Below, in pieces: positions 16,076 to 64,000 of a stretch of 64,000 nucleotides of DNA. The stretch lies in contig JAGGYM010000060.1 of NCBI GenBank assembly GCA_021162545.1, positions 1,999 through 65,998 of the forward strand. Direction: 5' to 3'. The DNA is from Dehalococcoidia bacterium. GTDB taxonomy: Bacteria > Chloroflexota > Dehalococcoidia > GIF9 > AB-539-J10. A program made the translations under genes and the position numbers. Numbering within the stretch: position 1 is the first letter of the stretch; each line of letters starts with the position of its first letter. Under the pieces are notes generated by a model that made no database searches, was not told the origin of the DNA, and was given only the letters and a program-made list of their open reading frames with translations.

Positions 16076-17701
16076 ATGGTAAATGCATGTAATGGTAAAA
16101 CTCTGAAGGAGATGTTCAGTACCGCAACTATCTGGCTGGAGAAGTGCGCCCCTGATATCAATGCCATAAACGTCTTCCCCGTCCCGGATGGAGATACGGG
16201 GACCAATATGCTGCTCACCATGCGTTCTGCTATAGAGGAAGCAAGCCAGAACGCGAATGGCGATGCTTCTCTGGTGGCCAAGGCAATGGCTCATGGAGCA
16301 CTGATGGGAGCACGCGGGAACTCGGGAGTTATTTTATCGCAGTTCTGGCGTGGACTGGCAAGGGGACTGGAGAATGCCAGTTTTGATGGCAGGGACTTTG
16401 CCAATGCGTTGACAGAATCGGCGCAAGCGGCTTATGAAGGCGTTGTTGACCCAGCAGAGGGAACGATCCTGACGGTGCTCAAGGACACGGCTCGGGCTGC
16501 TTGTGAGGCCGCCAGCGCAGGTTCATGTGACCTGACAGGGGTGATGGAAGTTGCCGTGGAGGCCGCCAGGGATTCGGTGGCGCGAACGCCTGATCTGCTG
16601 CCCGTTTTAAAAGAGGCGGGAGTGGTTGATGCAGGAGGAGAGGGCCTGTACATTTTGCTTGAGGGAGCGCTGTCTTCTCTGAAGGGAGAGGCGGACCGGC
16701 TACAGCATCGAACTCCTTCGGTGATTGATCCTGAGCTGTCCATGCAGCCGAAGGTAATGCAAATGCCCTCGCAGGTAGAAACGCCTTACGGATATTGCAC
16801 CAATTTTGTGCTGGAAGGATCAGATTTGGACCTGAGCAGAGTGAGAAAAGACCTGGCAAAAAAAGGTGAATCCCTGGCAATTACAGGCAATGACTCCCTG
16901 CTCAAGATTCACATTCATTGTCTTAACCCCGGGGAGGTTCTCAATTATGCCACTCGCCAGGGAAAGCTACATGAAATCAAAATCGACAACATGGACGATC
17001 AGTACGTCGAATTCCTGAAGACACAGAGAGAGAAGCTGCCCACAGTTGACGTGGCCATAGTGACAGTAGCTGCGGGAGATGGTTTCTTCAAGCTGTTCAA
17101 CGGACTGGGCAACGTAATCGTCGTACCCGGCGGGCAAACGATGAATCCCAGCGTTCGCCAGTTACTCCAGGCGGTGGAATCGGCCCCGGCGGGTGACGTC
17201 ATCCTGTTGCCCAACAACAAGAACATCGTGGCCACGGCTCGCCAGGTTATTCCCTTTACTTCGAAGAAAGTCAAAGTTGTGCCCACCAGAACTGTGCCTC
17301 AGGGCGTAGCGGCACTTCTTGCCTTTAACTATGACATGGATGTAGAAGAGAATGCACGCGTTATGGAAGAGGCAACGGGTGCAATTGTGACCATAGAGAT
17401 TGCCAAAGCGGTGAGAAAGACACAGGTCAATGACCTGAAAATAAAGAAGGGCAAACCCATTGCCATTTTGAACGATAGAGATTTGATAGCCTGTGGTGAA
17501 AATAATACAGCTGTCATCCTGGAAGCCCTGGCGAAGTCGGGGGTGGAGAAGGCAGAGATAATAACCATTTATTGCGGCGATAAAGCAAAAGCTGCAGAGA
17601 CCGATAATATAGTTAAGGAGATTCGCAACAGATATCAAAGTGAAGTTGAAGTTGTTCAGGGCGGTCAGCCCCATTATGACTATATAATATCGTTGGAATG
17701 A
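16076..17701 (+). CDS. DAK2-domain fusion protein (YloV-like)
   Basis: 541 aa. N-terminal Dak2 domain with VFPVPDGDTGTNM. C-terminal DegV/fatty-acid-kinase-like domain. The rpmB / yloV / recG arrangement is conserved in many bacteria. Confidence 0.75.
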   Translation: MVNACNGKTLKEMFSTATIWLEKCAPDINAINVFPVPDGDTGTNMLLTMRSAIEEASQNANGDASLVAKAMAHGALMGARGNSGVILSQFWRGLARGLENASFDGRDFANALTESAQAAYEGVVDPAEGTILTVLKDTARAACEAASAGSCDLTGVMEVAVEAARDSVARTPDLLPVLKEAGVVDAGGEGLYILLEGALSSLKGEADRLQHRTPSVIDPELSMQPKVMQMPSQVETPYGYCTNFVLEGSDLDLSRVRKDLAKKGESLAITGNDSLLKIHIHCLNPGEVLNYATRQGKLHEIKIDNMDDQYVEFLKTQREKLPTVDVAIVTVAAGDGFFKLFNGLGNVIVVPGGQTMNPSVRQLLQAVESAPAGDVILLPNNKNIVATARQVIPFTSKKVKVVPTRTVPQGVAALLAFNYDMDVEENARVMEEATGAIVTIEIAKAVRKTQVNDLKIKKGKPIAILNDRDLIACGENNTAVILEALAKSGVEKAEIITIYCGDKAKAAETDNIVKEIRNRYQSEVEVVQGGQPHYDYIISLE

Positions 17702-31380: not shown

Positions 31381-32553
31381 ATGAAGTTATTAGTTATAGG
31401 ATTAGGTCAATGTGGTGGTAGAATTGCCGACAGATTCGCCCGCCTGAACAAGAGGGCTCATGCACAACGAGGAATCCAGATCATCGCTGATGCGTTCGCT
31501 ATAAACACAGACGTTACGGACCTGAGCGGATTGCGCACCATCGGCCCCGACTACAAACACAGAATCCTCATCGGGGGGTCACAGACCAACGGCCATGGCG
31601 TAGGCAAGGTAAGTGAATTTGGCGCCGAGATAGCAAAAGAGGACAGCGACAAGGTCATAGACGCCCTGAGAACCTCAGAGCGTTTCCACGACACAGACGC
31701 TTTCATGCTTATAGCCAGCACTTCCGGAGGCACCGGATCAGGAGCAATAGGCGTCCTGACTCAGCTCCTGAAGGAGCGCTATATCGGAAAGCCGGTTTAC
31801 AACGTTGTCGTTCTTCCCTTCCGACAGGAAGAAACGACGGAAGCAAGAACTGTGTACAACACGGCCATATGTCTCAAATCCGTATATCTAGCAGCCGACG
31901 CCATCTTTCTTATCGACAACCAGAGGTACGTCAAGAAAAATGCCTCGCTTATGAGAAACATGGATGTCATCAATGCCCGGGTGGTTGAGCCATTTTACAA
32001 CTTGCTCTGTGCTGGAGAGGAAACGAACCAGCGGTTCGTCGGGTCAAAGGTACTCGATGCCGGCGATATAATGCAAACCCTGGCGGGATGGACAGTGTTG
32101 GGAGAGGGTTCTTCCCCTCTTCAAAAGAAGAGGTTTTCCTTCGGGGTGAAGCACGATTTCAGAGATAAGATGTCTGAAACCAGCAGGGGGGCCCAGTGCA
32201 TGGACGCAGCGCTGGGAGAGTTATCCCTTCCCTGCGAACCTAAAGACGCCAGGAGAGCACTATACCTCATCACTGCACCACCCAAGGAAATAAACATGGA
32301 CATAGTTAAGGAAGTTGGTGATAACCTGAGAGGCATAGCTCCCAACGCGCTGATAAGGAGCGGCGACTACCCACGGGGGAAAGATACCCTGAGCGTTTCT
32401 GTAGTCCTCTCTGAACTTACAGCGGTGAGGAAAATCACGAACTACTTTACCCAGGCGCTCGACCTGATCGCTACCATGAAGGCAAGGCAGGGATTGCAAC
32501 TACCCAGCAGGAAGTTCGAAGAAACCTTCAATGACATCCCTGTCCTGCTATAG
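31381..32553 (+). CDS. Tubulin/FtsZ-superfamily GTPase, tubulin/CetZ-like (not canonical FtsZ)
   Basis: 390 aa. N-terminal MKLLVIGLGQCGGRIADRF (GQCG glycine loop T1, as in tubulin GQCGNQ and CetZ GQAGG, not the FtsZ GGGGNA). T4 signature ASTSGGTGSG fits the tubulin pattern [SAG]GGTG[SA]G. Preceding NGHGVGK loop. T7-like region LIDNQ. Central helix and C-terminal domain present. No acidic tail. Confidence 0.75.
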   Translation: MKLLVIGLGQCGGRIADRFARLNKRAHAQRGIQIIADAFAINTDVTDLSGLRTIGPDYKHRILIGGSQTNGHGVGKVSEFGAEIAKEDSDKVIDALRTSERFHDTDAFMLIASTSGGTGSGAIGVLTQLLKERYIGKPVYNVVVLPFRQEETTEARTVYNTAICLKSVYLAADAIFLIDNQRYVKKNASLMRNMDVINARVVEPFYNLLCAGEETNQRFVGSKVLDAGDIMQTLAGWTVLGEGSSPLQKKRFSFGVKHDFRDKMSETSRGAQCMDAALGELSLPCEPKDARRALYLITAPPKEINMDIVKEVGDNLRGIAPNALIRSGDYPRGKDTLSVSVVLSELTAVRKITNYFTQALDLIATMKARQGLQLPSRKFEETFNDIPVLL

Positions 32554-33232: not shown

Positions 33233-34843
33233 TCAAGAGTCATCTTCTTCTTCAACTTCCTCTCCAATTTGCTCCTTATCAGATTGATACATCTTGGACA
33301 GGAAATCCAGGCGCGCCTTGATATCCCGTCCCGCCTTTTGAGGAGCTTCGCTCTTCCCCTTTTTGCTTTCAGCCTGGCTCAGCGCTGCCTCGAAGGCTCT
33401 TGGCGACGCTTCAGAAAATTTCTCCGCCGCACCTTCATCCACAGGGCCAGCGATCCCACTGAACTCCTGCGCTTTTTTCAAGGCTTCCCGGAATGCCTTT
33501 ATCGACGCTCTGGCCGCCCTCTGTGCTGACTTGCCCGCTTCTTCATTCCTTTCGACCGCATCTTCCAGCAGCCGGATCGACGTCTCCACCGATTCTCTGG
33601 CTACCTTTATCGAGTCCGCAGTCGCCTCCCTGGCCAACCGCACAGACTCCTCAGCAGCCTCTCTGGCCGACTGACTCACCTTTATTGCTTCCCGCGATAC
33701 CTTTTGAGCTTCAGCAGTAGCCTCTTCCGACAGCTTGCCCACCTCTTCAGCTTTACTCATGGATTCCTCCGCCACCCTCCTCGCTTCCTCAGCAATCCTG
33801 GTAACCTCCAGATTGGTAGTTTCAGCCCTGCTTATCGCTTCCAGCGATATCTTCTGCGCCTCATCGGCAGATTCATGGGACATCTGGCTTATTTCTTCAG
33901 ATCTGCTCACCGCTTCCCGTGAAGCCATCATCGACCTCTCCATATCTCTCCTGGAGGATTTGATTGACGCCTCAGCTCTATCTATAATTTCCTGGGATGA
34001 TGCCACCAGGGCCATGGCTTCTTCCCGAGACTCTTTCTCTATCTCCCTGGCCCTGTTCAGCACCTCCTCCGTTGCCCTTTTAGCCCTGACATTGGCCTCT
34101 TGAGCTATCCGTCTCCCCTCCTCAGATTTGCGCATAGCTTCATCAAATGTCCTCGCTGTTGCCTCCGCAGTTGATTTCGCCACTTTGCTTACCTTTTCAG
34201 CCATGTTGACAGCTTCCTGCGCTGCCTTTTTTGCTTCCCTGGAGACCTTCGTGATTTCTCTGTTCATCTCCTCTCCTCTGCCCACCGCATCCCGCGACGT
34301 TTCTCTAGCATCTTTGGCCACTTCCCGCGTTACCTTGCCCATCTCTTCAACTTTGCTCAGCGCCTCCTGAGAAGCCTTTCTCGCCCCCTCAGCTTCCTCC
34401 CATGATACCTGTCCTACACCTTCAACTCTCTCTATCCTCTCTTGCGATTCCCTTACCGATGCCTCAACAGTTTTCTGAATTGACTCGATCTTCCCCTCAA
34501 GTTTATTCACCGTATCCTCAAACACTTTCGCCGAGGCTTCGGCTGTCTTCGTCATTGCCTCGATTGAGGCCTCTGCCCTTTCCACTGCATTCTGAGACGC
34601 CTTTGTCACCGCGTCAGAGGTCTTCCGTGCTGCCTGGCTTGCCTTTTCCACCCGCCGCACCAGTTCCTGCAGCGTTCTTTTGGCTTCCCTAGCAGCTTCT
34701 TGAGTTTCATCACTTATTCTCTCAACCCTATTGATGGCATCCTGCGACGCATGCGATGATTCCTTGGCCGCCTCCTGAGCCGCCAGGCTCAGCATCTTCG
34801 CCTTGGCTACCGTCTCTTCAAAGGAATTGTTGCCATCTGCCAT
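33233..34843 (-). CDS. Large 11-mer-repeat amphipathic-helix / coiled-coil protein (LEA-, apolipoprotein- or phasin-like architecture) with acidic C-terminal tail
   Basis: 536 aa, almost entirely A/E/R/K/S. Clear 11-residue periodicity, e.g. REAIKVSQSAR|EAAEESVRLAR|EATADSIKVAR|ESVETSIRLLE. C-terminus ...EQIGEEVEEEDDS. RBS GAGGG before the ATG at 34843. Sits upstream of the 145-aa gene on the same strand. Confidence 0.65.
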   Translation of the reverse strand: MADGNNSFEETVAKAKMLSLAAQEAAKESSHASQDAINRVERISDETQEAAREAKRTLQELVRRVEKASQAARKTSDAVTKASQNAVERAEASIEAMTKTAEASAKVFEDTVNKLEGKIESIQKTVEASVRESQERIERVEGVGQVSWEEAEGARKASQEALSKVEEMGKVTREVAKDARETSRDAVGRGEEMNREITKVSREAKKAAQEAVNMAEKVSKVAKSTAEATARTFDEAMRKSEEGRRIAQEANVRAKRATEEVLNRAREIEKESREEAMALVASSQEIIDRAEASIKSSRRDMERSMMASREAVSRSEEISQMSHESADEAQKISLEAISRAETTNLEVTRIAEEARRVAEESMSKAEEVGKLSEEATAEAQKVSREAIKVSQSAREAAEESVRLAREATADSIKVARESVETSIRLLEDAVERNEEAGKSAQRAARASIKAFREALKKAQEFSGIAGPVDEGAAEKFSEASPRAFEAALSQAESKKGKSEAPQKAGRDIKARLDFLSKMYQSDKEQIGEEVEEEDDS

Positions 34844-47308: not shown

Positions 47309-48235
47309 TCAGATATCAAAAAATCCGGTGGATTTTTCCAACTCACTCAAGGCTTCCTTCGCTGTCTGGGATACATCCTGATAAGAGCTTCCCCTTAGCT
47401 GTCTCAGCGCTCCTTCCGCCCTTGCTCCCCCTATCAGCACCAACGCCCGCATACTTGCCTCCCGTACCTGGGCATCTCCATCCCAGGCAAGGTCAATCAG
47501 GAAAGGTACAGCTTCCTCCCTGCCCAATTCACCACAGGCTTCAGCCACCTTACAACGCACTACCGGAGCTTTGTTATCTTTCTCTGCGGAGATAAGAGGT
47601 AGCCACACCGGATCACAATTGCGCCCCATGGCACATACAGCGCTGGCCTTAATTTCTACGTTGCTGTGGTGGTAAGCTCGCTCGATCAGTCGCTTTATCC
47701 GGGGTGAATCCAGTGGAGCTATGGCCTCCAAACACCGTCGCTTCACTTCTTCCGTAGCGGATTCATCTTCAATGACCGCCAGCAAATTAGAATATATCTC
47801 TTTCTCTTGAAGGTGCGATAACTTCTTCACCGCAGCCAGGAGGGCAAACTGCCCCAGGGCAACCGCTGCCTCAATTTGAACCTTTTCTTCTTCATCCTCC
47901 CTGAGCAAACGAATCAGAGTTGTAACAACAGCGCCGTCTTCTTCCTCTCCCTCTATGGTCTTGATTGCCGCTCTCCTGACCTCTGCATCGCCATCATCAA
48001 GACAAGCATGAAACACTCTGCTGAAATCAAAAAACAGGCTATCGCCCCTGAGTTTGACAAGACGACTCAGAATATAGAGCTTCCTCTCCCTGACCGTCCG
48101 AGCCCACTCACACTCAAAAAGGGCTGCCTCTTCTTCCGCCAGACCTGACAGCAAGGCAAGCTGAGAAGGAGTTACTTTTCGCTCCGAATCCAGGATATCA
48201 GCTAGCTTTTGTTCAAACTCACTCCTCTTCTTCAT
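47309..48235 (-). CDS. HEAT/PBS-lyase-type repeat protein
   Basis: Repeated DxxVRxxAxxALGxIG-like alpha-solenoid units (DAEVRRAAIKTIEG, DAQVREASMRALVLIGG). Confidence 0.55.
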   Translation of the reverse strand: MKKRSEFEQKLADILDSERKVTPSQLALLSGLAEEEAALFECEWARTVRERKLYILSRLVKLRGDSLFFDFSRVFHACLDDGDAEVRRAAIKTIEGEEEDGAVVTTLIRLLREDEEEKVQIEAAVALGQFALLAAVKKLSHLQEKEIYSNLLAVIEDESATEEVKRRCLEAIAPLDSPRIKRLIERAYHHSNVEIKASAVCAMGRNCDPVWLPLISAEKDNKAPVVRCKVAEACGELGREEAVPFLIDLAWDGDAQVREASMRALVLIGGARAEGALRQLRGSSYQDVSQTAKEALSELEKSTGFFDI

Positions 48236-49001
48236 CCCGCTCCCAGATAGGCTCAGTAAACTGGTCAATATACTCCGCAGTTGCCTGCTTGGTTATCCTG
48301 TCCTCTTCCTCGCTCGTTTTCTCGACTAAACTCGCAAGCTCAGTCAAGTCAACCTCTATACCAATCATCCTGACGAGAACTTCAAGCACAGCCAGAGAGG
48401 CCTTGGGGTTTTCTATCTGAACGGCATAAGAAGGCACCTCTCCCAATAGGCAAACTCCCTCCATCCCCCGCTCCCTGGCCATCCCCAGCACCAGTCCGTT
48501 AAGTCCTGCAATGCGCAGATTGCCCTTCAGGATAACGCCTTCTTCTTCCAACTCACCGAGGAGTTCGCTCCCCGTAGCAGCTCCCCATACTCTGGATTTT
48601 TCCCGATGATGGATATGGGTCACTGCCGCAGCACAGCTATATATTCGGGTAACTTTAAGCTTCTGTGCCACATCCAGAACACAACTGACCAGCTCATGCC
48701 CCCTGGAATTCGGTTGTTCCTCCCCGAGAAAAAACACCAGCCCGTTCTCTCCTTGAGCATCCTGCCAGTAGTAGAAATTATTCTCAGGGAAGCGAGGTTC
48801 TTCAACGATATTATCCCGCACGACAACGCCCGTAGGTTCAAAGAAATAGGGGCTATCAATTTCTCCCATCTCCACGGCGTTCAGCTTTTCCCGCAAATAC
48901 CTCACCGCTATCAGAGAGACGTTGCCGATCCCCGGCCACGAAGCAAACATAACGCAACTTTTGGCTTCCGGTTGCTTGCGAAGTTTCACGATCCTTCTCA
49001 T
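48219..49001 (-). CDS. PAC2 (proteasome assembly chaperone 2)-family protein
   Basis: 260 aa. The pattern VMFASWPGIGNVSLIA ... LVFFLGEEQP ... GNLRIAGLNGLVLGMARERGMEGVCLLGEVPSYA matches the PAC2 family as I recall it (e.g. actinobacterial and archaeal members). Confidence 0.6.
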   Translation of the reverse strand: MRRIVKLRKQPEAKSCVMFASWPGIGNVSLIAVRYLREKLNAVEMGEIDSPYFFEPTGVVVRDNIVEEPRFPENNFYYWQDAQGENGLVFFLGEEQPNSRGHELVSCVLDVAQKLKVTRIYSCAAAVTHIHHREKSRVWGAATGSELLGELEEEGVILKGNLRIAGLNGLVLGMARERGMEGVCLLGEVPSYAVQIENPKASLAVLEVLVRMIGIEVDLTELASLVEKTSEEEDRITKQATAEYIDQFTEPIWERDEEEE

Positions 49002-52660: not shown

Positions 52661-53949
52661 TCCAGCGCCTCGGCTGCTACAAAGAGAGACCCGGTGATGC
52701 AGACGAGGTCTTCTTCCTTCGCCAGAGATAATACTAACCGTAGAGCGCGAGGCACATCGCTTGAGCTCTCTGGGGGAATCCCCTGTCTGGAAAACTCCGC
52801 AGCTATCATCGAAACAGCGGCCGCTCGCGGATGCGAAGAGCGGGTAACGGTGACTCGCGGAGAGAGGACAATCGCCTCCTTTACGATGCCTGAAATATCC
52901 TTGTCGCCTGACATTCCCACAACAAGAAAGACCTGCTCATAGAGAAAACAGGATTTAATGCTCTCAACCAGTCTTCCCATGGATGCCACATTGTGCGCCC
53001 CATCAACCAGAACCAGCGGGTGACGCCGGACGACCTGAAACCTCGCCGGCCATCTGACCTGAGCCATCCCCCGAACGATATTCGCAGCTGAGATATCACA
53101 CCCTCCTGCTGCAAGAATCTCCAGGGCAGCTACCGCGGTTGCCACGTTCTCCCCTTGATAATCACCCAAAAGAGGAGTGTGGATACGATATTCTCCCCCC
53201 ATGCCTTCAATTGCAAACGTTTGCCCCGCGAGGTCGGAATTTACCTTCCGACAGGTAACTTCTTCACCCACCTGAAACAGCTTCGCTTCCCGCAGCCGGC
53301 AAACATCCCGCAGCACCCCTGCCACCTCTTGCGGCTGGGGCGAAACTACAACTCTGGCTCCCGCCTTAATAATGCCAGCCTTCTCATAAGCTATCTCTTC
53401 CAGACTGTTGCCCAGAACCCCGGTATGGTCCCGGCTGACCGCAGTGATAACGCAGACTTCCGGCCAGGCTACATTGGTAGCATCGAGCCTGCCTCCCAAT
53501 CCCGTCTCCAGCACCTGGAAATCCACCTTTTTTTGGGCAAAATAAGCAAACGCCAGCACGGTCAATGCCTCAAAGAAGCTCAGCCGCTCCTGCCCTGCTT
53601 CTGCAAAGCGAGGCTTCAAATCAGTCATCAGTTCAGCGAACTCCTCCTCTGAAATCGCAGTGCCTCCCACATTGATTCGCTCTCTTATGGAGTGCAGGTG
53701 CGGGGAAGTGTATAATCCCGTCCTGTAGCCTGAGGCAGAAAGAACCTGCGCTACCATAGCCGCCACGCTTCCCTTGCCGTTGGTCCCCGCTATATGAACC
53801 GTTCTGGCCACGAGGTGCGGACTGCCCATTCGCTCCAGCAGTTCTTCCACATGCCCCAGGCTATAGCCGCCTGAGACATAAGGCGTTCCTGGAATGTTTT
53901 CGTAATTGAGGAAACTATTGAGATACTCTATCGCCTGAACGTAATTCAT
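52642..53949 (-). CDS. folC: Folylpolyglutamate synthase / dihydrofolate synthase
   Basis: 435 aa. Mur-ligase P-loop VHIAGTNGKGS. FolC N-terminus (AIEYL). Confidence 0.85.
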   Translation of the reverse strand: MNYVQAIEYLNSFLNYENIPGTPYVSGGYSLGHVEELLERMGSPHLVARTVHIAGTNGKGSVAAMVAQVLSASGYRTGLYTSPHLHSIRERINVGGTAISEEEFAELMTDLKPRFAEAGQERLSFFEALTVLAFAYFAQKKVDFQVLETGLGGRLDATNVAWPEVCVITAVSRDHTGVLGNSLEEIAYEKAGIIKAGARVVVSPQPQEVAGVLRDVCRLREAKLFQVGEEVTCRKVNSDLAGQTFAIEGMGGEYRIHTPLLGDYQGENVATAVAALEILAAGGCDISAANIVRGMAQVRWPARFQVVRRHPLVLVDGAHNVASMGRLVESIKSCFLYEQVFLVVGMSGDKDISGIVKEAIVLSPRVTVTRSSHPRAAAVSMIAAEFSRQGIPPESSSDVPRALRLVLSLAKEEDLVCITGSLFVAAEALDYLSCD

Positions 53950-54878: not shown

Positions 54879-56036
54879 GTGGCTCGTTGTATTTTTCATA
54901 TCGACCTGGATGCTTTCTTCGTTTCCGCGGAGCAGGCGGCTGTCCCCGAACTCAAAGAGAAGATAGTAATCGTAGGGGGATCCCCCGGGCACCGTGGAGT
55001 GGTAGCCTCCGCCTCCTATGAAGCGCGTTCCTTCGGAATACACGCGGGAATGCCTTCATCGCAGGCTCGTCACCTTTGCCCCCGGGCCGTGTTCCTTCAG
55101 CCCAATTTCCCCCGCTACAAAGAAGCTTCAGCCAAATTCATGAAAATCCTGGCTTCTTTCTCCCCCGAAATCGAGCCCCTGGGGCTCGATGAGGCATACC
55201 TCAACGCTACCGGTTGCGAAGGGCTCCACGGAACTCCTCGAGACCTGGCCCTGCTGATAAAAGGCCGCATACGTCAGGAACTCGATATCTCCGCCTCAGT
55301 GGGCATTGCCAAGTGCAAGGTGATAGCCAAAGTTGCCTCCGATTTATGCAAGCCCGACGGATTGCTGGAAATAGCGCCAGGGGAGGAGCGAGATTTTCTA
55401 AGGCCGCTCCCCATTAAAAAACTGCCGGGGATAGGCAGCAAAACAGAAGAAACACTGCATACACTGGGCATTAGTACCATTGGAGAGTTAGCACTCCTCC
55501 CTCTGGAAATAGTAAAAAGCCGCTTCGGCCTTCTCGGAGTAACGCTCCTGCAGCACGCCAACGGCATTGATGAGCGGAGGGTGACAGCACAGGGAGAGCC
55601 CAAATCCTTCAGCCTGGAAGTTACTTTCCCCAGAGACACCTCAGACCGTCACTTGATCGAGACCACTCTCCATCACCTGTGCCAGAGAGTGGGAGAAAAT
55701 CTGCGCCGCCAGAACAAAAGCGCAAGGTGCATCGCTATAAAGTTGAGATATTCCAATTTCGAAACGATCACGCGGCAAATCACCCTGAAAGAATCCGGCA
55801 ACGCCACCCAATTTATCTTCCGCACTGCTGCAGAATTACTGAACAAAGCCCTGCCACAAAGAGGGAACCCCTTCCGCCTCATCGGCGTCAGTGCTTCACT
55901 TCTGACTGGGCAGGGAAAACAACTTCCTCTCCTCGACCCCGAAATGGAAAGGCTGACGCGCCTGGATCAGGCCATAGACCAAATCCGCCAGAAATATGGC
56001 GCGCCGGCCATACAGCAGGGAATCGATGATGACTGA
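54879..56036 (+). CDS. dinB: DNA polymerase IV (Y-family)
   Basis: GTG start. IFHIDLDAFFVSAEQ catalytic motif. SIDEAYLD-like motif (GLDEAYLN). Little-finger domain. Confidence 0.85.
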   Translation: MARCIFHIDLDAFFVSAEQAAVPELKEKIVIVGGSPGHRGVVASASYEARSFGIHAGMPSSQARHLCPRAVFLQPNFPRYKEASAKFMKILASFSPEIEPLGLDEAYLNATGCEGLHGTPRDLALLIKGRIRQELDISASVGIAKCKVIAKVASDLCKPDGLLEIAPGEERDFLRPLPIKKLPGIGSKTEETLHTLGISTIGELALLPLEIVKSRFGLLGVTLLQHANGIDERRVTAQGEPKSFSLEVTFPRDTSDRHLIETTLHHLCQRVGENLRRQNKSARCIAIKLRYSNFETITRQITLKESGNATQFIFRTAAELLNKALPQRGNPFRLIGVSASLLTGQGKQLPLLDPEMERLTRLDQAIDQIRQKYGAPAIQQGIDDD

Positions 56037-56094: not shown

Positions 56095-56162
56095 ATCGCA
56101 CAGCTAGCAGTAATTGATTGCTGCCAGTTAGCATAGATAAACAGAGTCCTTCCAGACATCGC

Positions 56163-56804
56163 ATGCTGAAATCTCGTGAAGGTGAAGCGATCGCCATAAT
56201 TAATTATGGTGCAGGTAACCTGCGCAGCGTGGTCAACGCCATCACCAGCCTGGGGTACCAGCCAGAGGTAACCAGCAGACCAGATGAGATAGTTAACGCC
56301 AGGGCTGTTATTCTGCCGGGCGTCGGGGCCGCCGCCGATACCATAGAAAACCTCAGGGCGATGGGGTTGGATATCCTGATCCGCCAGCTGATAGACGATG
56401 GCTATCCCTTCCTGGGAGTCTGTATCGGGTTGCAAGTTCTTTTCACCGGCACCGAAGAAGGCGGCTGGCACGAATGTCTCGGCGTTCTTCCCGGGCGGGT
56501 GCGCAAGCTCCCTCCGGGGCTAAAAATTCCACACATGGGGTGGAATCAGGTAAAGCAGCTGCGCCCTCACCCCGTGTTCACCGACATACCGGATAGGGCC
56601 AACTTCTACTTCGTCCACAGCTACTACGTGGAGCCAGACGATAAATCTCTATCCATCGGTGAAACTGAATACGGTATTCCTCTATGCAGCGTCATAGCCA
56701 GAGAAAACCTGATAGCAACTCAATTTCATCCAGAGAAGAGCGGGGAATCTGGTCTCAAGCTGTACGACAATTTCATCAAGCTCGCCATGGCCGGTGACCG
56801 GTAG
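56163..56804 (+). CDS. hisH: Imidazole glycerol phosphate synthase, glutamine amidotransferase subunit
   Basis: [15 protein letters not shown]-terminus. Catalytic Cys (GVCIGLQ). His/Glu triad (FHPEKS). Confidence 0.85.
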
Positions 56805-56805
56805 A

Positions 56806-57573
56806 ATGTTAACCAAAAGAATCATCCCCTGCCTCGACGTCAAAGGTGGTCGGGTGGTAAAAGGAACGAGTTTCACCCATCTGGGCGATGCCGGTGACCC
56901 GGTAGAGCTTGCCAGTTCCTACTACAAAGATGGCGCCGACGAGCTGGTTTTTCTGGATATAACCGCTACTCCCGAAGGGCGCGACACCATGGTGGAGGTC
57001 GTCGAGCGCATTTCCAGGGAAGTCTTTATGCCCCTTACCGTCGGCGGTGGACTGTACAGCACCGATAATATGCGGCGCATGCTCATGGCTGGAGCGGACA
57101 AGGTTTCCATAAACACCGCCGCGGTGCTCAATCCCAAGCTGGTCGAGGAAGGAGCCCGCAAATTTGGCAGTCAGTGTATCGTGGTCGCCATCGACGCCAA
57201 AAGGGTAGATGCTGGCAAAGAGCCACAGTGGGAAGTTCACATCTACAGCGGACAGAAGTCAACGGGGATTGACGCCATCACCTGGGCAAAACAGGTGGTG
57301 GAGCTGGGAGCAGGAGAAATACTGCTTACCAGCATGGATGCCGATGGCCATCGCTCGGGATACGATAACGCTCTAACCCGCGCTATCTCCGAGGCAGTTA
57401 CCGTACCGGTTATCGCCAGCGGTGGAGCGGGTACGCCAGAAGACATGTATCAAGCCCTCGTGCTCGGCAAGGCCGATGCCGTCCTTGCTGCCAGCATCTT
57501 CCACTACGGAATTCACCCCATCCAGGAAACCAAGCTATATCTGGCAGAAAAGGGAATCCCAATACGGCTGTGA
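56806..57573 (+). CDS. hisF: Imidazole glycerol phosphate synthase, cyclase subunit
   Basis: [21 protein letters not shown]-terminus, a (beta/alpha)8 HisF. ATG lies 2 nt after the hisH stop. Confidence 0.9.
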
Positions 57574-57708
57574 GGGAGGCATGAAGAGAAGCGCATTAAT
57601 TTCCAGGTCTTTATACTTGCCGTCCCGAGGAGTAAAATACGACATGTCAGGGGCTTCGCGAAATGGATGAGGAAAACGAGAACGCCCTGCAAGAAGGAGG
57701 CCTAAAAG

Positions 57709-59085
57709 ATGGCAGGCACAAGCAAAGGGAAAGACATGGTTAAAAGCGGAGAGGACAGCAAAAGGCAAAGCAAAGAACTCGTCCTCAGAATGACCAAGGA
57801 CAACGACATCAAGTTCATCAAGTTGTGGTTCACCGATATCCTGGGCATGCTCAAGAGCTTTACAATCACGGTGAAAGAACTGGAAGGCGCACTGGAGGAA
57901 GGAATGGGCTTCGACGGTTCCTCGATTGAAGGTTTCGCCCGCATCGATGAAAGCGACATGACTGCTTTGCCCGACCCCAACACTTTCCAGATACTCCCAT
58001 GGGTACCCCGACAAAACGCCGTAGCCCGAATGTTTTGCAACATTATGATGCCCGAAGGAGAGCCCTTCCAGGGCGACCCAAGGTATATCTTGCAGAGAAA
58101 TCTGAAACGAGCCGCCGACATGGGCTATACCTTCTATGTGGGGCCTGAGCTGGAGTATTTTTACTTTCAGGACGCAAAAGGAACCGTTCCGTTGGATCAG
58201 GGGGGTTACTTCGACATGACCACCCAGGACGCTGCCATCGACCTGAGAAGAGAAACCGTCATTACTCTGGAGAAGATGGGCATTGGCGTTGAGTATTCCC
58301 ACCACGAGGCTGCCCCCAGCCAGCACGAAATAGACATGTGCTACACCGACGCTCTCGCCATGGCCGACCACGTGATGACCTATCGGCTGGTGGTCAAGCA
58401 AATCGCCCTGAGCCACGGCGTATACGCTACCTTCATGCCCAAGCCTGTTTTCGGCATCAATGGCAGCGGCATGCACGTGCATCAGTCGCTCTTTCAGGAC
58501 GGAAAGAACGCCTTCTTTGAGAGGGAAGCCCCTTACAGCCTCTCCAAAACAGCCAGGCGCTATATAGCAGGTTTGATGAAACATGCGCCCGAAATCACCG
58601 CCGTCACCAACCAGTGGATTAATTCCTACAAAAGGCTGGTTCCCGGATACGAAGCCCCGGTATATATCTCCTGGGCGCGGCGCAACAGGGCCGACATGAT
58701 ACGTGTCCCGGGATATAAGCCGGGCCAGGAAAATGCCACCAGGGTGGAAATTCGCTCTCCCGACCCCGCCTGCAATCCCTATCTCGTCTTCAGCATACTG
58801 CTGGCGGCCGGCCTCGAAGGCATTGAGAAAGAGTACGAACTCCCCGACCCCATCGAAGAAAACGTGTACACCATGAGCGAGGAAGAGCGGAAGGACAGGG
58901 GAATAGAAACTCTGCCTTCCAGTCTCCTGGAAGCCATTCAGTTAACTGAGAAAAGCGACCTCGTGCGTAAAACTCTGGGAGACCACCTCTTCGAGGCCTT
59001 CATCAGGAACAAGAAGATCGAGTGGGATCAGTACCATACTCAGGTAACCGAATACGAGCTTAACAAAAGCCTGCCGACATTGTAA
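57709..59085 (+). CDS. glnA: Glutamine synthetase type I
   Basis: 458 aa. FDGSSI, GPE(L/P)EYF and NPY motifs. The adenylylation-site region is not assessed. AAGGAGG RBS 8 nt upstream. Confidence 0.9.
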   Translation: MAGTSKGKDMVKSGEDSKRQSKELVLRMTKDNDIKFIKLWFTDILGMLKSFTITVKELEGALEEGMGFDGSSIEGFARIDESDMTALPDPNTFQILPWVPRQNAVARMFCNIMMPEGEPFQGDPRYILQRNLKRAADMGYTFYVGPELEYFYFQDAKGTVPLDQGGYFDMTTQDAAIDLRRETVITLEKMGIGVEYSHHEAAPSQHEIDMCYTDALAMADHVMTYRLVVKQIALSHGVYATFMPKPVFGINGSGMHVHQSLFQDGKNAFFEREAPYSLSKTARRYIAGLMKHAPEITAVTNQWINSYKRLVPGYEAPVYISWARRNRADMIRVPGYKPGQENATRVEIRSPDPACNPYLVFSILLAAGLEGIEKEYELPDPIEENVYTMSEEERKDRGIETLPSSLLEAIQLTEKSDLVRKTLGDHLFEAFIRNKKIEWDQYHTQVTEYELNKSLPTL

Positions 59086-59120
59086 GAAAGATGTACTTTG
59101 CCATGCAGGAAGGAGCTAGC

Positions 59121-60851
59121 ATGCACAGATTGCGAATCGGCATGGCTCAGATCAACACCACCGTAGGTGATTTTGAAGGTAACACCTGGAGGATACTGGA
59201 GGCTATCGACAGGGCCAGATCTCTCAATGTCGATCTCCTCACCTTCCCCGAACTCGCCATTTGCGGATATCCTCCGGAGGACCTTCTCTTCAAACCACAG
59301 TTTATCGAGGAGAATCTCCATTCCCTGGAGAAAGTAATCAATAGCTCCTCCAAACTCACCATCGTAGTTGGTTTCGTCGATGCCAAAGACGACATCTACA
59401 ACGCCGCAGCGGTAATCCACGACGGCAAGCTCGTCGGCGTGTATCACAAAATATACCTGCCCAACTACGGCGTCTTCGATGAGAACCGCTATTTTCGAGC
59501 TGGCAACGAATGCCCAGTTTACATCATTGCCGGCGTTGGCGTCGGCATCAACATCTGCGAGGATATCTGGTACGAGGCAGGGCCTGCTACGGTACAGGCC
59601 CATTCCGGAGCTGAGGTCATAGTAAACATAAGCTCCTCTCCCTACCATTTCGGCAAGGGGGACTTCCGGGAAAGAATGCTGGCGACCCGCGCCTCGGACA
59701 ACGCCGCCATCGTGGTGCACAACAACCTGGTGGGAGGACAAGATGAACTGGTCTTCGACGGCAACAGCATGGTGCTCGACGAGAAAGGACAGCTGTTAGC
59801 AAGAGGCAAACAATTCGAAGAAGACATGGTAGTCGCCGACCTCGACGTCGAGTCCGTCTTTCGCACGCGCCTTCACGACCCCAGATGGAGAAAGAGGATG
59901 CCCCTTCTGGACGAGCGGGAGTGGAGCAAGACCAAACTGATAGTATCCCAAGCGCTTCATGGTAGCCCGAAGCACCCCTTACCGCAAAGACAGCTTCAGG
60001 TACGCGGCCTTCCCAGGGAAATATATGACGCTCTGGTACTGGGTACGCACGACTACGTTAGCAAAAACGGCTTTAGCAAGGTTATCATCGGACTCTCCGG
60101 TGGAGCCGATTCCGCACTGGTGGCTGCCATTGCAGTCGATGCCCTGAGCAACTCAAACGTGCTCGGCGTGGCGATGCCTTCAAGGTACACTTCCCGGACC
60201 AGCACATCAGATGCCGAGTTGCTGGCCCGGAACCTGGGCATCAAGCTATTGACTATTCCTATAGAGAAAGCCTTCCAGGCTTATCTTGAGATGCTGGCCA
60301 GAGAATTTGCCGGGACGGAACCCGGTGTAACCGAGGAAAACCTTCAAGCCCGCATCAGGGGCAACATCCTCATGTCACTATCCAACAAGTTCGGTTGGCT
60401 CGTTCTCACCACGGGCAACAAGAGCGAAACCGCTACCGGTTATACCACGCTCTACGGAGATATGGCCGGCGGCTTCGCTGTGATAAAGGACGTACCCAAA
60501 ACCATGGTCTATGAGCTGTCAAGCTATCGAAACTCGATAGCAGATTCAGAATTGATACCATCCTCCATCATAGACAAGCCTCCTTCAGCTGAACTGCGAC
60601 CGGAGCAAAAAGATATCGATTCACTGCCACCATATGAACTGCTTGACCCGATTTTAACCGCCTATGTTGAAGAGGATAAGAGCGTCGAGCAAATTATCGC
60701 CATGGGATTCGAACCCGAGGTAGTGCGGCAAGCTGCACACCTGGTGGATGGCAGCGAGTACAAACGCCGCCAGGCCCCCCCCGGTATTAAGATAACCCCC
60801 AGGGCCTTCGGAAGAGACAGAAGATTGCCTCTGACAAACTGGTTCAAATGA
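59121..60851 (+). CDS. nadE: Glutamine-dependent NAD+ synthetase (nitrilase domain plus NadE domain)
   Basis: N-terminal CN-hydrolase domain (RIGMAQIN, catalytic EL.ICGY). C-terminal PP-loop SGGADS. Start at ATG 59121 with an AGGAAGGAG RBS. Confidence 0.85.
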   Translation: MHRLRIGMAQINTTVGDFEGNTWRILEAIDRARSLNVDLLTFPELAICGYPPEDLLFKPQFIEENLHSLEKVINSSSKLTIVVGFVDAKDDIYNAAAVIHDGKLVGVYHKIYLPNYGVFDENRYFRAGNECPVYIIAGVGVGINICEDIWYEAGPATVQAHSGAEVIVNISSSPYHFGKGDFRERMLATRASDNAAIVVHNNLVGGQDELVFDGNSMVLDEKGQLLARGKQFEEDMVVADLDVESVFRTRLHDPRWRKRMPLLDEREWSKTKLIVSQALHGSPKHPLPQRQLQVRGLPREIYDALVLGTHDYVSKNGFSKVIIGLSGGADSALVAAIAVDALSNSNVLGVAMPSRYTSRTSTSDAELLARNLGIKLLTIPIEKAFQAYLEMLAREFAGTEPGVTEENLQARIRGNILMSLSNKFGWLVLTTGNKSETATGYTTLYGDMAGGFAVIKDVPKTMVYELSSYRNSIADSELIPSSIIDKPPSAELRPEQKDIDSLPPYELLDPILTAYVEEDKSVEQIIAMGFEPEVVRQAAHLVDGSEYKRRQAPPGIKITPRAFGRDRRLPLTNWFK

Positions 60852-61022: not shown

Positions 61023-62402
61023 ATGCACGAAGGTTGTGCCGTCGTCGGGATATTTTCCCGCGAAATGGATATCAGCCGGACTTCTTTCTTCTCCCTTTTT
61101 AGCCTCCAGCACCGGGGACAGGAAAGCAGTGGCATTGCCGTAAGCGATGGTCACAACATAAGAAAACACACGGGTAACGGACTGGTTTCTCAGGTATTCA
61201 CAGAATACGAGCTCGACCGGCTCAGGGGACATATCGGCATCGGGCACAATCACTATTCAACTACGGGGACAAACAGGCTATTCAACGCCCAGCCAATCAC
61301 CGTCGGGTCGGGAACTTCAACGCTGGCACTGGCACACAACGGCAACATTGTCAACGCCGAACCCCTGCGCGATGAGTTAACTGAACTCGGTTATAATTTC
61401 CACACATCCACCAATTCCGAAGTCATTGGCAACCTCATCCTGTCCTCTCCCGGCAATAGCCTCGAGGAAAAAATAAGACACGCCATGCGGCGGCTCGAGG
61501 GAGCTTACTCCATGACCATCATGAGCAAAGACAAACTCATCGGAGTACGAGATCCAATGGGCATACGCCCCCTCTGCCTTGGCACCATCGATAACGGCTG
61601 GATAATTGCCTCGGAAAGCTGCGCTCTGGACCAGGCAGGTGCTCAATTTATCGAAGAGATCGAGCCCGCGGAGATTGTGGTGATTGACGATGACGGCAAG
61701 AGCTCCTTTAAACAAAAAGGCAAGCGCAAGGCTTTGTGTATCTTCGAATACATTTACTTTGCCCGCCCCGATAGCGTCATCTCAGGCAAGCTGGTTTACC
61801 AAGCCAGAGAATCCATGGGGGCAATGCTGGCTCAGGAATACCCCGTTGATGCCGATCTGGTCATGGGGATCCCAGATTCAGCCACTGCAGCCGCCATCGG
61901 CTATTCACGGACCTCCGGCATCCCTTATTGCGAAGGGCTGTTAAAAAACCGTTATGTCGGACGAACCTTTATCCAGCCCGACCAGAGAATGAGAGACCTG
62001 GGAGTCCAGATGGAATTTAATCCTCTCTCCCGGATAATCTCAGGAAAGCGGTTAGTGGTCGTCGATGACAGCATCGTCCGAGGAACTACCACACCCCACG
62101 TAATCAATTTGCTGAGGAAAGGCGGCGCCAGAGAGATTCACCTCCGCATCTGTGCCCCCCCCCTTTGCCATCCCTGCTTCCTGGAAGTAGATATGGCCAG
62201 CGAATGGGAACTTATTGCTGCTCAGATGCCCGTCCCACGGATCAGAGAATACCTGGGCGCTGATTCTCTTGGTTACCTCAGCCTCGACGGCCTGATTCAC
62301 GCTACGGGACTGCCTGAAGATATTTTTTGTCTTGCGTGCCTCAATGGAGAATACCCCCTCCCTACCCAAATAGCTTTGGGCAAGCTGACCATGGGAAAAT
62401 AG
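61023..62402 (+). CDS. purF: Amidophosphoribosyltransferase
   Basis: Ntn-type catalytic Cys after a short propeptide (MHEGCAVVGIF). PRPP-binding motif (VVVDDSIVRGTT). C-terminal Cys cluster. Confidence 0.9.
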   Translation: MHEGCAVVGIFSREMDISRTSFFSLFSLQHRGQESSGIAVSDGHNIRKHTGNGLVSQVFTEYELDRLRGHIGIGHNHYSTTGTNRLFNAQPITVGSGTSTLALAHNGNIVNAEPLRDELTELGYNFHTSTNSEVIGNLILSSPGNSLEEKIRHAMRRLEGAYSMTIMSKDKLIGVRDPMGIRPLCLGTIDNGWIIASESCALDQAGAQFIEEIEPAEIVVIDDDGKSSFKQKGKRKALCIFEYIYFARPDSVISGKLVYQARESMGAMLAQEYPVDADLVMGIPDSATAAAIGYSRTSGIPYCEGLLKNRYVGRTFIQPDQRMRDLGVQMEFNPLSRIISGKRLVVVDDSIVRGTTTPHVINLLRKGGAREIHLRICAPPLCHPCFLEVDMASEWELIAAQMPVPRIREYLGADSLGYLSLDGLIHATGLPEDIFCLACLNGEYPLPTQIALGKLTMGK

Positions 62403-62503: not shown

Positions 62504-63088
62504 ATCAAAATCGGAGTTTTAGCCCTGCAGGGCTCATTCATAGAGCATATACGCATCATACAAGGGCTGGGAGCAACAGCTGTTCCTGTTCGCTTGCCCA
62601 AGCAGCTCAGCGGATTGGATGGTCTTATCATGCCCGGAGGCGAGAGCACCACCATCCTCAAATTAATGCAAAAATTCAACCTGGCCATCCCCCTGAAGGA
62701 ACTGGCCCGATCGGGATTGCCCATTTGGGGAACATGTGCCGGCATGATTTGCCTGGCCAAAGGAGTTTACAACGGCATGGAGGGACTGGCCGTCATGGAC
62801 ATGTCGGTCAAGCGCAATGCCTTCGGGAACCAGATAAACAGCTTCGAATCCAATCTGCCAATCCCCCCTCTGGGGGACGAGCCATTCCCCGCCGTTTTCA
62901 TTCGCGCTCCCTTTATCGAAAGGGCCGGCCCCCGGGTGGAAATCCTGGCCAGATTGCCGGAAGGAACTGCCGTAGCTGCCAGGCAAGGAAAATTACTGGC
63001 CACTGCCTTCCACCCCGAATTCACCAGTGACCTAAGAGTGCACAGCTATTTCTTGAAAATGGCCACCTCTCCGGAGCGAAGACAATGA
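62504..63088 (+). CDS. pdxT: Pyridoxal 5'-phosphate synthase glutaminase subunit PdxT; apparent non-ATG (ATC) start
   Basis: The conserved PdxT N-terminus (M)KIGVLALQGSFIEH begins at in-frame ATC 62504, 8 nt after a GGAGG RBS. No ATG, GTG or TTG is available in frame. The first ATG (62594) would delete the conserved N-terminal strand. Catalytic Cys (GTCAGMI) and His/Glu (FHPE) are present. Confidence 0.8.
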   Translation: MKIGVLALQGSFIEHIRIIQGLGATAVPVRLPKQLSGLDGLIMPGGESTTILKLMQKFNLAIPLKELARSGLPIWGTCAGMICLAKGVYNGMEGLAVMDMSVKRNAFGNQINSFESNLPIPPLGDEPFPAVFIRAPFIERAGPRVEILARLPEGTAVAARQGKLLATAFHPEFTSDLRVHSYFLKMATSPERRQ

Positions 63089-63175
63089 GAAGATGCAACT
63101 TACCGTTCAGCTTTTGAGGCAGGGATAGTATAATACTCCAGAGATTCCAGGGGAACTTAAAGGAGCAGAGCACAA

Positions 63176-64000
63176 TTTGGAGACAGAAACTAAAATAATA
63201 GCCATTCTCAAGGTTCTGAGCGAATCCTCTGAACCGGTAGGGTCAGTAACCATCGCCAGAGAACTCGAGCGCTATGGCATTTCCCTGAGCGAGAGAGCCA
63301 TACGCTACCACTTGAGATTAACGGACGAGCGCCATTACACCCAACCGCAGGGACGAGACGGCAGGGCAATAACCCCCGAAGGGCTCGAGGAGCTCAAGAT
63401 AGCGCTGGCTGCCGAGCAGGTGGGATTCATACTCGATAAACTCGACCTGCTGACCTTCCAAACCACCTTTGATCCCGAAAAGCGAGAGGGGCTACTTCCC
63501 ATAAATACCTCTTTGTTCGACAAGAATCAGTTCAGAAAAGCGCTGACTGCCATGGAGAAAGCCTTCAAGGCGGGATTCTGCGTCAGCGAGCTGGTGGCTA
63601 TAGCCTCCGAAGGAGAAAAACTTGGTTCTGTTATCGTGCCAAAGGGAAAAATCGGACTGGCCACCATTTGCAGCCTGGCAATAAACGGAGTGATGCTCAA
63701 GGCCGGCGTGCCCATAAGGCCCATACTGGGAGGGGTGCTTGAACTCAGAGATACCAGGCCAAGGCGCTTCGTCTCCATAATCAACTATGCCGGCACATCT
63801 GTCGATCCCTCGGAGCAATATATCCGCGCCAAGATGACCAGCGTCAGCGAAGTTGCCAGGACCGGCAACGGGAATATACTGGCCAGCTTCCGTGAGATAC
63901 CAGCCCCATCAAGAGCAATTGTCAACAAAAAAATCGCCCTGCTCAAAGAATCCGGGGTCAACGGAGTTTACCTTCTGGGTAACACCAGTGAACCCATTTG
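63176..64000 (+). CDS. nrpR: NrpR-like nitrogen regulatory protein (DUF128 family), 5' partial; continues past window end
   Basis: Hand translation from TTG 63176: LETETKIIAILKVLSESSEPVGSVTIARELERYGISLSERAIRYHLRLTDERHYTQPQGRDGRAITPEGLEELKIALAAEQVGF... A winged helix followed by an NrpR domain, as in methanogen NrpR. Absent from the ORF track because no stop codon falls inside the window. TATAAT at 63128-63133 and AAAGGAG upstream. Confidence 0.6.

Follow-up and report, generated by a model that had tools for sequence, protein, structure and literature searches.

An archaeal-type, one-domain NrpR homologue beside nitrogen-assimilation genes in a Dehalococcoidia-like bacterium

The nrpR-like gene and its product

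The 64,000-nucleotide stretch of contig JAGGYM010000060.1 analysed here (the window) ends, on its plus strand, within a gene for a homologue of NrpR, the best understood transcription factor of archaea that senses 2-oxoglutarate directly. The gene closes a same-strand string, hisH-hisF-glnA-nadE-purF-pdxT-nrpR, and its open plus-strand frame (63177..64000) occupies the final 824 bases of the window, in which 274 codons are read without a stop. Translation from 63177 reproduces exactly the peptides reported in a first-pass annotation of this DNA (such as LETETKIIAILKVLSESSEPVGSVTIARELERYGISLSERAIRYHLRL and GRDGRAITPEGLEELKIALAAEQVG), which had placed the TTG start codon one base early, at 63176, in a frame crowded with stops; the TTG occupies 63177-63179. 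Because an in-frame TAG lies 16 codons 5' of this TTG with no intervening ATG, GTG, or TTG, the latter is the first canonical start. It is preceded at 11 nt by a Shine-Dalgarno-like AAGGAG (63160..63165) and at 43 nt by a TATAAT hexamer (63129..63134) that may serve as a -10 box, for which no good -35 sequence was seen; TATAAT or TACAAT also precedes the nrpR orthologues of five related loci (L003-L007) at a comparable distance.

The ORF is missing from the ORF list of the window, as had been pointed out, solely because that list omits ORFs that run off the window end. A public protein of 327 amino acids (P0001) is 100% identical to the translated product, and two JGI contigs from one metagenome (L001 and L002) share 3.2 and 1.4 kb with the window, respectively, at an identity of 99.9%. 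Extension along these contigs brings nrpR to its stop 53 codons past the window end, so that the window holds codons 1-274 of 327; therefore the gene shows neither the early termination nor the frameshift that the first-pass annotation had considered. The ORF is a real, intact gene. In the overlapping contigs it is followed by a diaminopimelate/ornithine decarboxylase gene (lysA), holB, a gene for a PSP1-domain protein, and an HNH gene.

The product comprises an N-terminal winged-helix DNA-binding domain (amino acids 8-73, 63198..63395; PF08461, 69 bits, E 3.4e-19) and an NrpR regulatory domain (NRD; amino acids 82-273, 63420..63995; PF01995, 207.5 bits, E 2.4e-61). The latter score, from the profile search (DUF128/PF01995) that had been proposed as a check, was obtained with the truncated product, which covers positions 1-190 of the 238 in the model, the remainder lying past the window; the curated cut-off of this family ('NrpR regulatory domains NRD1 and 2', NRD1_2) is 25 bits. 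Full-length P0001 carries a precomputed PF01995 hit, and no NCBIfam model matched the product. The only solved relative found is PDB entry 3NEK, the NRD2 domain of MJ0159 from Methanocaldococcus jannaschii, with a sequence match at E 6.2e-22 over amino acids 86-322 (26-27% identity). In an AlphaFold2 model (60-sequence alignment; mean pLDDT 95.5), the C-terminal NRD superposes on 3NEK with a TM score (target) of 0.90-0.91 and an rmsd of 2.1-2.2 Å over ~240 columns (Foldseek, E 3.6e-21).

The family alignment of 60 sequences has 3 invariant and 18 near-invariant residues, and the product retains every one of them. A conserved ERxVRYHL-type helix is present in the N-terminal winged helix, where the presumed recognition helix (SERAIRYHL) and the wing that comes after it (GRDGRAITPEGLEEL) align with nearly identical sequences in archaeal one- and two-domain NrpRs. 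The winged helix is 44-50% identical to its archaeal counterparts, and the NRD ~27-34% identical. The homology proposed in the first pass, of both the winged helix and the NrpR domain, is thus supported by architecture, profile scores, the sequence match to 3NEK, and the predicted fold. With one winged helix and one PF01995 stretch in 327 amino acids, the product can be assigned by sequence to NrpR-family regulators of the one-domain 'NrpRI' architecture, without the second NRD of the Methanococcus type; an 85%-identical relative already bears the name 'global nitrogen regulator NrpRI' in JGI annotation.

NrpRI (NrpR1) of Methanosarcina mazei and M. acetivorans likewise consists of a winged helix and one NRD in ~330 amino acids. 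The best labelled archaeal relative is the one-domain type of Methanosarcinales/Methanoperedens metagenome-assembled genomes (MAGs; cluster P0146), which gives the best NRD score (164 bits, 34% identity; 36% over the full length), the NRDs of two-domain proteins reaching at most 121 bits. Unlike Methanosarcina NrpRI, the window protein belongs to a host with a sigma-70 RNA polymerase and no TBP/TFB for an NrpRII-type partner, and the operator GGAA-N6-TTCC is not found at its neighbouring nitrogen genes. The prototype of the family, which represses nif and glnA in Methanococcus maripaludis (MMP0607), shares with the window protein a homologous winged helix, a near-identical recognition helix, a homologous NRD, and linkage to glnA; it differs in having two tandem NRDs in ~540-580 amino acids (as in P0133, P0136, and P0180), whereas the window protein has one. 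The MJ0159 NRD2 resembles the window NRD in sequence and predicted fold, and the solved 3NEK chain is without a DNA-binding domain.

Host, distribution, and genomic neighbourhood

Several products of the window are hallmarks of bacteria: GroEL (a group I chaperonin), FtsK, RNase J, a pair of TldD/PmbA proteins, Lgt, a GreA-like factor, RecJ, FtsY, and DinB. The nearest named NrpR relatives are from MAGs of Chloroflexota, Dehalococcoidales, and Dehalococcoidia (58-77% identity), on contigs that carry glnA and nadE 73-79% identical to the window copies; the top species-representative match in the genome collection has 74% identity to the NrpR product. Because both the NrpR relatives and the accompanying glnA and nadE come from Dehalococcoidia/Chloroflexota MAGs, the host is read as a Dehalococcoidia-like (Chloroflexota) bacterium without a close species representative in that collection. 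The bacterial hallmark genes and the Chloroflexota relatives bear out the first-pass view that this NrpR homologue is encoded in a bacterium. The GC content of nrpR (0.528) and its GC3 (0.609) equal those of its neighbours, and its dN/dS against five orthologues is ~0.06-0.09, with dS saturated. The gene is under purifying selection, and it is an old, maintained resident, neither a recent insertion nor an assembly chimera.

A word-indexed search returned 2770 relatives of the product. An exhaustive search of 1.84 billion representatives at 50% identity gave 712 clusters at E <= 1e-3, of which 428 reached E <= 1e-10, and by this measure the NrpR family is small overall. Labelled bacterial clusters belong to Syntrophobacterales and Planctomycetota, and labelled archaeal ones to Methanosarcinales/Methanoperedens, Halobacteriota, Bathyarchaeota, and Methanosphaera. 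In a neighbour-joining tree in which most other tips are unnamed, the window protein and its named relatives, which make up the Dehalococcoidia cluster, fall together with the single labelled Syntrophobacterales cluster, the single labelled Planctomycetota cluster lies in the sister group, and all three are separate from the labelled archaeal clusters. Scans of genomes and metagenomes gave 95 loci, of a Dehalococcoidia type (58-77% identical) and a Syntrophales type (46-51%). The statement that bacterial homologues are uncommon therefore holds across bacteria overall, given the count of clusters among 1.84 billion representatives, but not within Dehalococcoidia and Syntrophales, given the 2770 hits and the 95 loci. 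Among bacteria, NrpR is restricted to a small number of anaerobic lineages that coexist with methanogens, namely Dehalococcoidia, Syntrophales, and some Planctomycetota.

Two homologues of the M. maripaludis NrpR (MMP0607, COG1693) were reported earlier from each of three Dehalococcoides genomes, 'but nowhere else', and were ascribed to lateral transfer (Gao and Gupta, 2007; PMC1852104). That report, a BLAST observation only, concerned Dehalococcoides mccartyi strains 195, CBDB1, and BAV1, which likewise encode archaeal-type NrpR within Dehalococcoidia, in two copies per genome. The window gene comes from an uncultured relative, and its neighbourhood is hisHF-glnA-nadE-purF-pdxT, as opposed to the commoner amtB-glnK-glnA-nadE-carAB. 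It adds one more member to a known and already annotated kind, already in public protein collections, and entails no new principle.

The first-pass annotation had placed the gene in a nitrogen and amide-transfer neighbourhood, and each of the genes named was confirmed by Pfam, all on the plus strand: hisH-hisF (imidazole glycerol phosphate synthase; 56118..57573), the first genes of the string; glnA (glutamine synthetase; 57709..59085); nadE (glutamine-dependent NAD synthetase; 59091..60851), 5 nt past glnA; purF (amidophosphoribosyltransferase; 61023..62402); and pdxT (glutaminase subunit of pyridoxal phosphate synthase, SNO family; 62504..63088), directly 5' of nrpR. The most plausible local target is glnA, which lies 4.1 kb upstream of nrpR on the same strand (~4 kb in the first-pass estimate) and is preceded by a promoter-like TTTATA-17-TAAAAT identified by a promoter scan (57610-57638). 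A gene for CTP synthase, another glutamine amidotransferase, is present farther upstream in the window.

Gene contexts were counted in 35 Dehalococcoidia-type loci with at least 5 kb of flanking sequence. In 19 of them, genes of the set glnA, amtB, glnK, nadE, carAB, purF, pdxT, and hisHF are found near nrpR; glutamine-consuming biosynthetic genes are near it in 18, and glnA, amtB, or glnK in 11. The commonest order is (amtB-glnK)-glnA-nadE-(carA-carB)-nrpR, in which the glnA-nadE pair beside nrpR is kept, and the second is hisH-carA-nrpR-...-hisF-ompR. In several of the remaining loci (L003, L040, and L054) glutamate synthase genes adjoin nrpR, an adjacency that links NrpR to a 2-oxoglutarate-consuming enzyme. 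The Syntrophales homologues come after carB-purF, with amtB-glnK 5 kb away. Two bacterial phyla thus share the linkage of nrpR to genes for glutamine synthetase (GS), glutamate synthase (GOGAT), ammonium uptake, and pathways that consume glutamine, and it is mainly because of this linkage that a nitrogen-related role is proposed for bacterial NrpR.

Certain relatives carry two nrpR paralogues, ~47-50% identical, which bracket a single nitrogen cluster: the layout in L092 is nrpR(B)-ompR-amtB-glnK-glnA-nadE-nrpR(A), and L019 and L089 have the same layout spread over two contigs. The second paralogue also has a winged helix and an NRD, unlike the NRD-only NrpRII of Methanosarcina. The presence of two paralogues matches the two homologues per Dehalococcoides genome noted in 2007 (PMC1852104). 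Neither a second nrpR copy nor a gene for an NRD-only NrpRII partner was found in the 64-kb window.

Proposed role, operator searches, and alternatives

On homology and context, we consider it on balance probable that the window encodes a one-domain transcription factor of the NrpR family, long resident in a Dehalococcoidia-like bacterium, that acts as a 2-oxoglutarate-responsive repressor of nitrogen assimilation. The winged helix would bind the promoters of nitrogen-assimilation genes and, by analogy with methanogens, the protein would be released once its regulatory domain binds 2-oxoglutarate under nitrogen limitation; in methanogens, 2-oxoglutarate-dependent release of NrpR from its operator is established (PMC11957540; PMC9765008; PMC4902934). 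Likely targets would be the GS-GOGAT genes and the genes for ammonium uptake, and possibly those for glutamine-dependent biosynthesis. In a bacterium, repression would proceed by occlusion of the sigma-70 promoter or RNA polymerase, instead of through TBP/TFB. If this role is correct, it would explain the control of GS-GOGAT and ammonium uptake in organohalide-respiring Chloroflexota, a group without a described nitrogen regulator in the papers searched, and an archaeal repressor would be seen to function with bacterial RNA polymerase.

Several results weigh against this reading. No paper testing or characterising any bacterial NrpR was found in the literature searched. The first-pass annotation had suggested the methanogen operator GGAA-N6-TTCC as the sequence to be sought, and the searches covered DNA near nrpR, namely the 64-kb window and 0.89 Mb of related loci. 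The motif is absent from the regions upstream of glnA, purF, pdxT, hisH, and nrpR. Exact sites in the window number 3, against 1.66 expected (26 of 100 shuffles reach 3), and sites with one mismatch allowed number 39, against 37.7 expected; the counts are 8 versus 6.6 expected in 0.50 Mb of Dehalococcoidia-type loci and 9 versus 6.0 expected in 0.39 Mb of Syntrophales-type loci. Whatever the order of the GGAA and TTCC arms, none of the spacings between 0 and 20 nt is enriched among 213 non-redundant intergenic regions, and no palindromic 4+4 dyad is enriched upstream of 37 non-redundant nrpR genes; nor did these searches bring out any other operator. With GGAA-N6-TTCC missing at the glnA promoter and not enriched elsewhere in the DNA covered, repressor action is inferred from homology and context, as are the ligand (2-oxoglutarate) and the targets. 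The lack of a conserved element upstream of nrpR agrees with a published finding that, in methanogens, nrpR is not itself under nitrogen control (PMC9765008).

A further point on the same side comes from the amtB promoter of the Dehalococcoidia relatives. An OmpR-type regulator (Trans_reg_C only) is encoded between the second nrpR paralogue and amtB, and the amtB promoter contains a GTAAC-type direct repeat four times at 11-bp intervals, for example GTAACATGTTC GTAACCTGTTT GTAACACAATC GAAACA (regulator and promoter sites: L019 1038-1852; L092 1663-2474; L041 9236-10047; L033 ~280-405). We take these 11-bp-spaced repeats to resemble the actinobacterial GlnR box. This suggests that the amtB promoter of the relatives is driven by a different, GlnR-like activator, in which case NrpR is probably not the sole nitrogen regulator in these bacteria and may share nitrogen control with that activator. 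No GlnR-box arrays were found in the window.

The same observations bear on a rival explanation, by which the protein is a true NrpR-family regulator that has diverged in effector, operator, or regulon. It might sense glutamine or another nitrogen or carbon metabolite, control carAB, purF, nadE, pdxT, and hisHF rather than nif and glnA, or function as an activator. The predominance of glutamine-consuming biosynthetic genes among the neighbours (18 of the 35 loci, versus 11 with glnA, amtB, or glnK), the failure to detect the methanogen operator, the seemingly GlnR-box-driven amtB promoter of the relatives, and an identity of only ~27-34% between the NRD and archaeal NRDs would all fit such divergence. 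It is made doubtful, although not implausible, by the recurrent linkage to GS, GOGAT, and amtB-glnK, by the retention of the conserved core motifs of the NRD, and by a recognition helix that is nearly unchanged from the archaeal proteins, because of which a similar half-site can be argued. A different proposal, that the protein by itself is not the regulator and needs another NrpR paralogue with which to form a hetero-oligomer, in the manner of Methanosarcina NrpRI/NrpRII or of the fused two-domain NrpR of Methanococcus, is compatible with the favoured explanation and not exclusive of it. The two paralogues that flank one nitrogen cluster in relatives (L092, and L019 and L089 across two contigs) and the pair of homologues in each Dehalococcoides genome (Gao and Gupta, 2007; PMC1852104) would be expected from it, but each paralogue has its own winged helix, unlike the NRD-only NrpRII, the 64-kb window has no second copy, and the Syntrophales loci show one copy only within 10 kb; we regard an obligate partnership as unlikely.

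The family is mainly archaeal, a transfer hypothesis has been published (PMC1852104), and nrpR lies at the window edge, all of which could raise the suspicion of an archaeal fragment mis-assembled into a bacterial contig, or of a decaying transferred gene. Such an artefact or relic is refuted by the recurrence of the pdxT-nrpR-lysA-holB junction in two more contigs, by the match of GC and GC3 to the neighbours and a dN/dS of ~0.06-0.09, by dozens of independent bacterial MAG contigs that carry orthologues in bacterial contexts, and by the intact ORF and confident structure model, which together render it extremely improbable.

Beyond the favoured explanation of a 2-oxoglutarate-responsive repressor, we tentatively put forward, as a possibility, a hybrid nitrogen circuit in Dehalococcoidia, composed of two archaeal-derived NrpR paralogues, each with a DNA-binding domain, that bracket amtB-glnK-glnA-nadE-carAB, together with a GlnR-like OmpR activator of actinobacterial type acting on GTAAC boxes spaced at 11 bp. 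In this circuit the archaeal recognition helix would have been kept, and the operator or targets would be other than GGAA-N6-TTCC. If true, nature would here have adapted an archaeal repressor that senses 2-oxoglutarate to the RNA polymerase of bacteria. The interest of the gene lies in how NrpR works in bacteria, and it is sharpened by the two paralogues, the putative GlnR-like partner, and the lack of a nearby methanogen operator.

Candidate regulatory elements and other features

The three exact GGAA-N6-TTCC sites of the window (53236-53249, 55616-55629, and 55914-55927) all lie within 2.7 kb, in the coding sequences of dinB and a folC-like gene, at 0.2-2.9 kb 5' of hisH. GGAATTTACCTTCC and GGAAGTTACTTTCC, two of the three, are identical at 12 of 14 positions, and the clustering of the three has a p value of roughly 0.005, calculated post hoc.

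Other candidate elements were rejected. A TTCC-N3-GGAA sequence between the -10 box and the nrpR start (63145-63155) was considered as an autoregulatory operator and was rejected as a coincidence; it overlaps the ATG start in L040, L063, and L024 and is absent from most other orthologues. The 4+4 dyad GTAT-A-ATAC upstream of nrpR reflects only -10 box context, and the 7-mer TTCCAGG common to the upstream regions of glnA and nrpR is expected by chance between two 100-nt regions. Folding of the glnA leader RNA gave a non-significant z-score of -0.98, and Rfam offered nothing similar up to E <= 1. The five intergenic regions of the gene string are free of inverted repeats of 10 nt or more, and alignment of the nadE promoter from six loci shows conservation at -35 and -10 only. 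Perfect 5+5 palindromes in 254 intergenic regions were only REP-like hairpins (GCGACCCTAAAGGGTCGC). Such GC-rich hairpins (GCGACCCTAAAGGGTCGC and GAGGCTTTAGCCTC) recur between genes of Dehalococcoidia MAG contigs (L004 2019-2106; L025 10148-10236 and 10999-11286; L026 2210-2297; L033 7862-7979; L041 847-1124).

Syntrophales-type nrpR genes have a near-invariant 5' region, ~49 nt upstream, in nearly all of those examined (32 loci; L094 is divergent). It consists of TTGACA, 17 nt that include ATTCC(A/G)TG, a TAGAGA-like -10 sequence, and then CCATCGGCAAATGAT(T/G)GCCGATTGCCGATGG, and it contains overlapping inverted repeats, ATCGGCAA-N4-TTGCCGAT and CCATCGGCA...TGCCGATGG. The element is found in L012-L018, L020, L066-L083, L086-L088, L091, and L093 (for example, L013 6340-6420) and was not seen elsewhere in the flanks. 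The element might serve as an autoregulatory operator or form a leader hairpin; with respect to the latter, the sequences are too similar for covariation, and the sole divergent sequence is misaligned. In the same group, amtB-glnK lies behind a sigma-54-type promoter, TGGCAG-N5-TTGCA (TGGCAGGGTAATTGCA; L014 ~16640-16700 and L015 ~12985-13045, minus strand).

Among the Dehalococcoidia-type loci with glutamate synthase genes, a split glutamate synthase is directly followed by nrpR or by glnA-nrpR (L003 7520-9900, L040 754-2559, L054 5591-7156, and L024 1-560). In this split form, the domains of the large subunit appear as separate ORFs.

The pdxT gene of the window probably uses a non-canonical ATC start, as judged from its sequence. 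The conserved N-terminus IKIGVLALQG begins at ATC 62504, 9 nt after GAGGAGG (the orthologue in L021 begins MRIGVLAVQG), and the first in-frame ATG, GTG, or TTG is TTG 62594, from which the product would lack 27 conserved residues. This ATC is also present in the overlapping contig L001, where the gene caller chose a later start (152 amino acids). The purF sequences of L001 (238-1616) and the window (61023-62402) differ by one indel, because of which purF is called as two genes in L001 (388 and 69 amino acids) and is one 459-amino-acid ORF in the window.

A second archaeal-type gene in this bacterial window, besides nrpR, encodes a 390-amino-acid CetZ-like protein of the tubulin/FtsZ family (31381-32553, plus strand), with a CetZ C-terminal domain (PF21011, E 1.4e-19) and a GGTGSG signature. 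Between this gene and groEL is a 536-amino-acid ORF (33233-34843, minus strand) with no Pfam match at E <= 1e-5. A PAC2-family protein, similar to proteasome assembly chaperones (E 3e-43), is encoded at 48219-49001 on the minus strand, adjoining the gene for a HEAT-repeat protein.

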